DNA from: Hormiphora californensis
Taxonomy: Eukaryota; Animalia; Ctenophora
DNA length: 64,000 nucleotides
NCBI GenBank assembly: GCA_020137815.1
Contig: CM035358.1
Location: 6,944,001-7,008,000, forward strand
Direction of reading: 5' to 3'
Part shown: positions 36,101 through 40,404 of the stretch, piece by piece
Layout of the letters: each line of letters starts with the position of its first letter
Numbering within the stretch: position 1 is the first letter of the stretch
The notes under the pieces: generated by a model
Seen by the model: only the letters and a program-made list of their open reading frames with translations
Databases searched by the model: none
What the model was told of the DNA's origin: nothing
Program-made: the position numbers and the translations under genes

Positions 36101-39100
36101 TGATAAGAACGATCGATGCAAGGAGTGGGCTGACAGGGGTGAATGCAAGAACAGTTGGCAGTATATGGGGGAGAACTGCAAGAAATCATGCAACATCTGC
36201 GGGTGTAGTGATGGTTTGTCTGACTGTGCAAGATGGAAGGATGCTGGCCACTGCAAGGACAACTTCAGTGGATTCATGAACGTGATGTGCAGGAAGTCAT
36301 GTGGGGTCTGTAAGGATGATAGCAAGTGCCCTGATGCCCTGGTGTGGTGTAACGGTGGATGCAACCATGAGCATTTCTGTCATTAAAGCGGAGGAGAGAA
36401 AACAGGAGGAAAAAACAGGAGGAGAGGAGAGAACAGCCGGGATTATCTTGATACGATCCTTCTGTCATTAAATTATTGAGACAAATTGTTAGAGTTTTAG
36501 TGAAAATAGAAATCGTTTTACTTGTTTTACCGAAACATCCCTGCCCTGATGATAAGGTTTTTCAGATCAAATCACACTTCCTTTACTATTCACAAATCAT
36601 ATGATATGACCTTGATCATAAAGTCGGTTCAGATAGTTGATCATGCATAATGAATGCTGACCCACAATTTTACCACCGATCTACTGCAAGACTAACTGAT
36701 TACATTTCTCACCTGTTCAAGTGTCTCGTAACAGCCCAGTAGAACATCAAGGTGAGTCCGTACAAACTCAATATCAGAATTGGTGTGACCTCCACACTCC
36801 TCCCTCAAATACCCCATACCTGGTGAGATTGTTACTTTAACTAGGGGAAGAGCAGGTGAGATTGTTAATTTAACTAGGGGAAGAGCAGGTGAGATTGTTA
36901 CTTTAACTAGGGGAAGAGCAGGTGAGATTGTTACTTTAACTACGGGAAGAGTAGGTAAGATTGTTACTTTAAATAGGGGAAGAGCATTGACTCCCTACTG
37001 CATAGTAAGCTACCACCTCAATAAGTTGGTTTCCAGTCGATGTTACCTTTTTGGAGTTCGGTAACGGTTGAATCTTTGTGGTTGTTCAACAAGTATCTAA
37101 AAAAGAGGGAGACCCAGAGTCAATACTTGAGGGAAAGTGAATCGTAACTCTTACATAAACATGAGCTTGACAACTTTCATCCAGGGTCGTAAAAAGACGC
37201 CCCCCCCCCCCCCGAACAGGATGTTGTCTATTCTTACTTGACGGGATCAAATGAGACGGAGGAAGGGTCACTTTCAGCAGTAGTGTTGGTAGCATGGAAC
37301 GAGACATGCCCACCGAACAAGTTCCTTGGGTCACCCTGGGACATCTTCCGATCTGAGGGGTGAGATCGTTACTTTAACAAGGGGAGAGCAGGTGAGATCG
37401 TTACTTTAACTAGGCGAACAAGGGTGATGACACCCTGGGAAATCTTCCTATCTGAGACAAAGGAGTGTGCGATAGTAACTTTAAAGTTACTATCACACTA
37501 ATTAGCTAGGGGATGTGACAGGGGTGCAATGGAAGATGCTAAACCAACCAACATACCCCGTGATATCTCTGAGAGTCTCTCATTCTCCCTCTGTCAATTC
37601 AACATAAATGAGATGACTACATGTGTACAACTAACCTCTTGTGACATGCTCCAGCTCCAGTTGGTTCTCATCCATCCAGAGTGGTACCTCATGCTCCATT
37701 GAGATCCGTTCTGGCCGGTCTGTTACCTTCAGCTCAATACTACAATCTCCCTCCCCTCCCGTCAGCGTCACAACCGTTACCTAGCAACGAATTGTTAAAT
37801 ACTACAATCTCCCTCCCCTCCTGCCAGCGTCACAACCGTTACCTAGCAACGAATTGTTAAATGTTACAATCTCCCTCCCCTCCCGCCAGCGTCACAACCG
37901 TTACCTAGCAACGAATTGTTAAATACTACAATCTCCCTCCCCTCCCGTTAGCGTCACAACCGTTACCTAGCAACGAATTGTTAAATACTACAATCTCCCT
38001 CCCCTCCCGTCAGCGTCACAACCGTTACCTAGCAACGAATTGTTAAATACTACAATCTCCCTCCCCTCCCGTCAGCGTCACAACCGTTACCTAGCAACGA
38101 ATTGTTAAATACTACAATCTCCCTCCCCTCCCGCCAGCGTCACAACCGTTACCTAGCAACGAATTGTTAAATGTTACAATCTCCCTCCCCTCCCGTCAGC
38201 GTCACAACCGTTACCTAGCAACGAATTGGTAAATACTACAATCTCCCTCCCCTCCCGTCAGCGTCACAACCGTTACCTAGCAACGAATTGTTAAATGTTA
38301 CAATCTCCCTCCCCTCCTGTCAGCGTCACAACCGTTACCTAGCAACGAATTGGTAAATACTACAATCTCCCTCCCCTCCTGTCAGAGTCACAACCGTTAC
38401 CTAGCAACGAATTGTTAAATACTACAATCTCCCTCCCCTCCCGTCAGCGTCACAACCGTTACCTAGCAACGAATTGTTAAATGTTACAATCTCCCTCCCC
38501 TCCTGTCAGCGTCACAACCGTTACCTAGCAACGAATTGTTAAATACTACAATCTCCCTCCCCTCCTGTCAGCGTCACAACCGTTACCTAGCAACGAATTG
38601 TTAAATACTACAATCTCCCTCCCCTCCTGTCAGCGTCACCACCGTTACCTAGCAACGAATTGTTAAATACTACAATCTCCCTCCCCTCCTGTCAGCGTCA
38701 CAACCGTTACCTAGCAACGAATTGTTAAATACTACAATCTCCCTCCCCTCCCGTCAGCGTCACAACCGTTACCTAGCAACGAATTGGTAAATACTACAAT
38801 CTCCCTCCCCTCCCGCCAGCGTCACAACCGTTACCTAGCAACGAATTGTTAAATACTACAATCTCCCTCCCCTCCTGTCAGCGTCACAACCGTTACCTAG
38901 CAACGAATTGGTAAATACTACAATCTCCCTCCCCTCCCGTCAGCGTCACAACCGTTACCTAGCAACGAATTGTTAAATACTACAATCTCCCTCCCCTCCT
39001 GTCAGCGTCACAACCGTTACCTAGCAACGAATTGGTAAATACTACACTCTCCCTCCCCTCCCGTCAGCGTCACAACCGTTACCTAGCAACGAATTGTTAA

Positions 39101-40404: not shown

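Follow-up and report, generated by a model that had tools for sequence, protein, structure and literature searches.

A tandemly repeated intron 2/exon 3 junction in a ctenophore EXOC2 gene, with splicing most likely in one step to the last of 36 copies

On contig CM035358.1 of Hormiphora californensis, one intron/exon boundary of a gene is repeated as a long tandem array in which each copy carries its own acceptor AG. How such an intron is removed is the question that this locus raises. A preliminary description of the DNA had offered two answers: that the intron is taken out stepwise in multiples of the repeat unit, each junction recreating a possible donor as at recursive ratchet points, or that exon definition overrides the upstream copies, which are then decoys. 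We weighed these answers, and two further ones, using the sequence of positions 6,944,001 to 7,008,000 of the contig (the 64,000-nt stretch called the window below, to which all coordinates refer), related proteins and a small number of RNA contigs.

The gene is, judged by its sequence, EXOC2/Sec5, with an IPT/TIG domain followed by a Sec5 domain in an order collinear with known members. The parts needed here are as follows.

15297..40404, minus strand: EXOC2/Sec5 gene, 20 modelled exons, 820 aa, no stop
40296..40404, minus strand: first coding exon, the start of the IPT/TIG domain (phmmer against the PDB)
40032..40135, minus strand: exon 2, with the weak donor TTT|GTAAGA
37781..40031, minus strand: intron 2, 2251 nt, phase 0
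37736..39960, minus strand: 62-bp x 36 minisatellite, 35 decoy acceptors and the real one
39906..39995, minus strand: copy 1 of the array, the intron-proximal one
37636..37780, minus strand: exon 3, 145 nt, its head being copy 36, with the donor GAG|GTTAGT

In phmmer searches the first coding exon matched Sec5 entries of the PDB (1hk6_A, E 2.4e-4; 1uad_C, E 3.3e-4), and exon 3 alone gave no meaningful match to the PDB. Collinear tblastn matches to residues 9-821 of Mnemiopsis leidyi EXOC2 (P0002, which carries PF01833 and PF15469 and is matched at 71% by a downstream exon) extend across the exons, and 509 of 801 aligned residues of the model (63.5%) are identical to P0002. C-terminal exons corresponding to P0002 residues 822-985, beyond 15297, were not found by tblastn within the 64-kb window. 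A EukProt fragment that is 98% identical to a downstream exon is presumably from Pleurobrachia, judging by the style of its identifier. Exon 3 aligns with P0002 residues 78-116 (tblastn), and the phase-0 junction of exons 2 and 3 aligns with the Mnemiopsis protein without a gap, DQPF-VTVVTLTGGEGDCSI here corresponding to DDPF-VIVVTKSGGEGECNI, which is present once in Mnemiopsis. A GT follows the AG of the unit because these are the first two bases of a Val codon that is conserved in Mnemiopsis and lies at a phase-0 junction.

Tandem Repeats Finder gave the minisatellite a period of 62, 35.9 copies, 95% matches and a score of 4037. Each unit joins 17 nt of intron tail (a branch-like TAAC or TACC, then TTGCTAG) to the first 45 nt of exon 3, rather than the 44 nt reported earlier. 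The approximately 36 tandem 3' splice sites that had been described are indeed there: we counted 36 TTGCTAG acceptors, their first exon bases running from 39950 (copy 1) to 37780 (copy 36), with a spacing of exactly 62 nt in 35 of 35 intervals, which replaces the 61 bp given before. The AG is kept in all 36 copies, of which copies 1-35 lie upstream of exon 3, and there are 23 distinct unit sequences. GT directly follows the 3' splice site in 35 of the 36; the spelling AG|GTAACG, once ascribed to every junction, holds for 32, with AG|GTTACG at three (copies 1, 3 and 4) and AG|ATAACG at one (copy 11). The branch-like motif, also ascribed to every unit, is TAAC in 26 copies (25 of the 35 decoys) and TACC in nine; copy 1, which starts GTTACG, has a longer flank of its own, reaching about 10 nt beyond the intron part of the unit and holding neither TAAC nor YTRAY. 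TAAC is found at -45 to -10 of 10 of the 19 true EXOC2 acceptors versus 98 of 542 background YAG sites, and is thus a plausible branch motif for EXOC2. Between -17 and +45, five decoys do not differ from copy 36 at any base.

Only the reading frame of copy 36 continues into ELKVTDRPER, as had been claimed. A stop codon is met from all 35 upstream acceptors: in 26 of them an in-frame TAA, itself part of the branch-like TAAC, comes right after VTVVTLTGGEGDCSI (15 codons), in line with the earlier remark that this is usual, and the other nine stop after 21 or 24 codons. At unit positions +41/+42 nine of the 35 copies share a linked two-base variant that changes a Ser to an Asn codon and encodes the residue that Mnemiopsis has at that place; as it reproduces the TAACA next to it in the intron part, it may be of templated origin. 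A metagenome scan for the array unit returned 0 matches. Selection on the exon-derived part of the unit was considered and dropped, the excess of synonymous variant types (6 of 12 against approximately 27% expected) being non-significant (p=0.08).

The copy number comes from one assembly, and in P0003, a gene model built on a different assembly (97% over 32 aa of exon 3), exon 2 is followed directly by the whole of exon 3. One could suppose that real chromosomes lack the array or carry it at another size, or that only this haplotype has it. P0003, however, is a chimeric prediction that includes a piece of a transposon and says nothing about intron DNA, and we discounted it as transcript evidence as well. 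The 23 distinct units, their linked variants and the exact 62-nt period would also be unlike a collapsed or looped assembly, and we consider an artefact or private array very improbable.

The RNA records were oligo-dT contigs with a depth of about 2 from three runs, two of which (X1 among them) showed a small share of words; they were examined over 37000-37800, a region that takes in the last unit only; they probably derive from an individual other than the one sequenced, and copies were matched on the assumption of a shared haplotype. Run X2 supplied three records on 37000-37800, and runs X1 and X3 had no records there. One 151-nt contig (depth 2) is identical at 36 of 36 nt to 37780-37745, and its loose end is the end of exon 2. 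Exon 2 is thus spliced to the AG of some unit. No contig runs from exon 2 into exon 3's unique part; this one falls 9 nt short of it and fits 11 of the 36 copies, copy 36 included and copy 1 excluded, so that random use of copies would produce such a fit 11 times in 36. A second contig shows normal joining of exons 3 and 4 (37636 to 37352); the exon 2-3 and exon 3-4 junctions are the only ones in the model confirmed by RNA.

If the array were a recursive ladder, exon 2 would be joined to an upstream copy, the junction would rebuild a donor, and sequence would be removed in 62-nt multiples until copy 36 is reached. The AG|GT at 35 of 36 junctions speaks for this, as does the layout of each copy, which is that of a cryptic RS-exon as defined in passages of PMC6224609 (a 3' site with a 5' site downstream within 100 nt). 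Recursion is also known from introns of various sizes and can occur stochastically, according to parts of PMC10156609. However, AG|GT is ordinary in EXOC2, where nine of 19 internal exons start with GT. Scored with matrices built from 18-19 sites of this one gene, the rebuilt donor TTT|GTAACG reaches -0.3, below all 19 real donors (4.8-10.6 in-sample, 1.5-9.9 leave-one-out), and it agrees with the U1 consensus at four of nine positions. It is the second lowest of the nine rebuilt donors at GT-starting EXOC2 exons. Exons with far stronger rebuilt donors, such as exon 18 (9.0), must be kept; the donor said to be recreated at each junction is weak.

It also has a competitor within the array. The sequence TAG|GTAACG, 62 nt downstream, has the same intron hexamer with a better exon side, resembles the exon 5 donor AAG|GTAACA and scores 6.2, within the range of the in-sample real donors. 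In the RS-exon model, as given in passages of PMC6224609, efficient recursion needs the rebuilt 5' site to beat the downstream one; since here the downstream one is stronger, entry at a decoy is predicted to give a 62-nt poison exon and no ratchet. Recursion would further require that an identical junction persist in the finished mRNA once copy 36 is joined. Nor do the splice-signal columns appear more conserved, two of nine being variable versus 11 of 53 in the rest of the unit (Fisher p=1.0, a within-array comparison of low power), and the 62-nt step is below the shortest intron of the model (100 nt). The matrices rest on few sites, ctenophores may not follow mammalian rules, and occasional recursive events may occur in intron 2; as the account of how this intron is removed, the ladder appears very improbable. 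The preliminary description had added that scanning, which usually favours the first AG after a branch point, would here yield a truncated protein. Every decoy does lead to a stop, but copy 1 would not be forced on the spliceosome, because scanning sets out from whichever branch point is chosen and a branch-like motif is present in most units.

We put the probability at roughly 0.7 that the intron 2/exon 3 boundary has been tandemly expanded into this array, a so-called mirage minisatellite, and that a single ordinary splicing step most likely takes out intron 2 by joining exon 2 to the last copy, with the 35 spare acceptors likely idle. The stop-free 20-exon model and the single VIVVTKSGGEGECNI stretch in Mnemiopsis indicate that the gene needs copy 36. 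The unit acceptors score -4.0 to -5.1 (copy 1: 0.6), the real copy 36 included, against 0.8-15.7 for all 18 other EXOC2 acceptors (leave-one-out). As the repeated acceptor is so weak alone, its recognition likely depends on the exon 3 sequence and donor downstream, and as no base between -17 and +45 separates copy 36 from five of the decoys, the choice cannot reside in the site itself. Unique to copy 36 are 100 nt of exon sequence and a strong donor at +145, which scores 9.3 versus 6.2 for the in-array donor. Copy 36 would be chosen through the unique exon sequence after +45 and pairing with the donor at +145, by exon definition or an exonic enhancer. Exon-side selection that overrides the decoys, the second answer of the preliminary description, is accordingly our best reading. 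Reed and Maniatis are said to have found in 1986 that truncating the exon beside a duplicated site shifts use, in vitro, to the site with the full exon.

The array would have begun when about 62 nt spanning the junction were duplicated, with amplification through slippage or unequal exchange afterwards. Measured to the acceptor of copy 1, that is without the array, intron 2 is 81 nt long. Extra copies would accumulate on the intron side only, because the exon-adjacent site then still yields an intact protein, and the rare mis-spliced transcript would carry a premature stop and likely be cleared by nonsense-mediated decay. We also considered other roles for the array. It does not provide extra coding exons, as none of the in-frame pseudo-exons between copies is stop-free, and the 81-nt segment to copy 1, if retained, is in frame yet contains stops (tblastn). 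RNA structure masking the decoy AGs was rejected: three 131-nt folds had z-scores of 1.61, -0.05 and 0.61 versus shuffles, and a small hairpin seen around the AG in some folds does not set copy 36 apart.

The 62-nt pseudo-exons are in principle usable through the in-array donor and are not obviously silent. The decoys and pseudo-exons of 62n nt might accordingly enter a sizeable share of transcripts, which are then destroyed by nonsense-mediated decay; if so, copy number would tune EXOC2 output. The AG survives in all 35 decoys and TAAC in 25 of them, the in-array donor lies inside the real-donor range (4.8-10.6), and every product carries a stop, so that steady-state RNA primed with oligo-dT would hide such transcripts. 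Against this, every copy has a very weak acceptor, and amphioxus mirages and the pseudo-sites of human F7 are reported silent in passages of PMC3087553, PMC3902484 and PMC1557585. No aberrant contig occurred among the three records on 37000-37800, which are too few to carry much weight. We regard such leaky use as unlikely, though of the alternatives to single-step splicing it is the one we would take most seriously.

Expansion of a splice junction is not confined to intron 2. The gene holds four further junction-spanning arrays, all on the donor side.

30697..30895, minus strand: exon 13, 28 bp x 7, TGA|GTAAGT in 7/7
29182..30220, minus strand: exon 14, 40 bp x 26, AGG|GTAAGT in 26/26
23648..24208, minus strand: exon 16, approximately 103 bp x 5, GAG|GTGAGA in 4/5
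15537..16027, minus strand: exon 19, 37 bp x 13, CAG|GTAGGG in 13/13

The 40-bp array must be very young, its 26 copies being at 99% matches. In all five junction arrays the exon-adjacent site is the one required by the reading frame, and this frame argues for use of the first donor at the four donor-side arrays. Among arrays merged at a period of at least 20 and at least 2.5 copies, five of 16 in the gene cross a splice site versus 0.98 expected under random placement of founding units (P 0.002), and without the array at exon 3 four of 15 do so versus 0.90 expected (P 0.009), in a post hoc test of one gene whose arrays cluster near intron ends. This excess points to a general duplication process.

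Such arrays have precedents. In amphioxus, mirage minisatellites are described for the globins BflGb6 and BflGb9 (passages of PMC3087553), for Adh, troponin C and PGBD5 (passages of PMC3902484), and for Adh3 (Canestro et al. 2002, as cited in PMC3087553 and PMC3902484). The mirage of BflGb6 is on the acceptor side, comprising the 3' end of an intron together with exon 2's 5' portion, and a section of PMC3087553 reports normal splicing by RT-PCR. As in amphioxus, the EXOC2 arrays are tandem copies of an intron/exon boundary, affect donor and acceptor boundaries alike, and consist of head-to-tail units spanning the boundary, with splice signals kept in the intron beside the true exon; many amphioxus copies also keep AG/GT. 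Unlike the amphioxus cases, this one is in a ctenophore, not a cephalochordate, has 36 copies where BflGb6 has 3 and 6, keeps all 35 decoy AGs intact, and is one of five such arrays in a single gene. The array therefore belongs to the already described mirage kind and is not a new system. We found no ctenophore mirage in the literature searched, whose coverage stops short of most subscription journals, and junction repeats are not mentioned in passages of PMC8527503 and PMC4494053.

Three further systems bear comparison. Intron 7 (IVS7) of human F7 has a 37-bp VNTR with five to nine identical 5' sites, of which only the exon-adjacent one is used (passages of PMC1557585). As a junction-spanning minisatellite with pseudo-sites it resembles the EXOC2 arrays and directly matches the four donor-side ones. 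The F7 array is donor-side, however, and is explained there by 5'-to-3' scanning; at exon 3 the array is acceptor-side and the useful site is transcribed last, so the F7 scanning model does not explain it. With ratchet points and RS-exons, as described in parts of PMC6224609 and PMC10156609, the units share the AG|GT junction and a 5' site shortly downstream, but differ in that the rebuilt donor is weak and scores below its competitor, the low-power comparison within the array gave no sign of conservation, the sites copy the start of the true exon, and no lariat or intermediate appeared among the oligo-dT contigs. A recursive ladder, if real, would explain the harmless large growth of GT-starting acceptor-side mirages. 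In the tandem-duplication model of intron gain at AG|GT sites (Rogers 1989, as cited in a passage of PMC3087553), duplication over AG|GT likewise makes paired donor and acceptor signals inside an array; here, in contrast, an existing intron was lengthened from 81 to 2251 nt, with no new intron position needed.

Other repeats and genes lie in or near EXOC2. One 16-nt family holding TAAC (type copy 31044-31029, at most two mismatches) is strand-polarised at the ends of EXOC2 introns and may supply branch points.

36840-37409 and 31044-31115, minus strand: 16-nt TAAC repeats
23667-25657 and 18612-18680, plus strand: 16-nt TAAC repeats

All 10 sense matches are at most 153 nt upstream of acceptors (exons 4, 6 and 13), and 15 of 17 antisense matches are at most 507 nt downstream of donors (exons 15 and 16). 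Intron 16 contains a long inverted duplication at about 19000-22950 (about 18800-20200 mirrored at about 20400-22950, seen by eye), parts of which recur at 48190-48980; by eye it resembles a foldback-type element which has divided the repeat following exon 16. Antisense genes are nested in EXOC2 introns at about 26210-27190 and 33700-36400 (plus strand), labelled by eye as a cathepsin-like cysteine protease and a gene of several exons whose cysteine repeats are ShK-like; such nesting is common in Hormiphora (passages of PMC8527503). At 40660-41420 on the minus strand, the strand of EXOC2, an intronless ORF labelled by eye as RNA exonuclease 4-like ends about 250 nt before the EXOC2 start, and the acceptor-like AG found immediately ahead of the EXOC2 ATG could serve for trans-splicing within a polycistronic unit. 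A MITE-like element of about 120 bp with terminal inverted repeats is found at 29060-29160, 31780-31880, 34120-34200, 57840-57900 and 58180-58280; P0003 carries one in intron 1, a place where the window lacks it. Also labelled by eye were a LINE-like retrotransposon with two long ORFs (6900-10900, minus strand) and a transposase-like fragment (14180-14830, minus strand).

The array extends mirage minisatellites to ctenophores, which suggests that the process is old or has arisen repeatedly in animals, and the occurrence of five junction arrays in one gene hints that tandem duplication is biased to splice junctions or retained there. With 35 intact, variant-tagged decoys, five of them identical to the real site from -17 to +45, intron 2 is a natural test of exon definition versus branch-point scanning, and one that sits in an early-branching animal.
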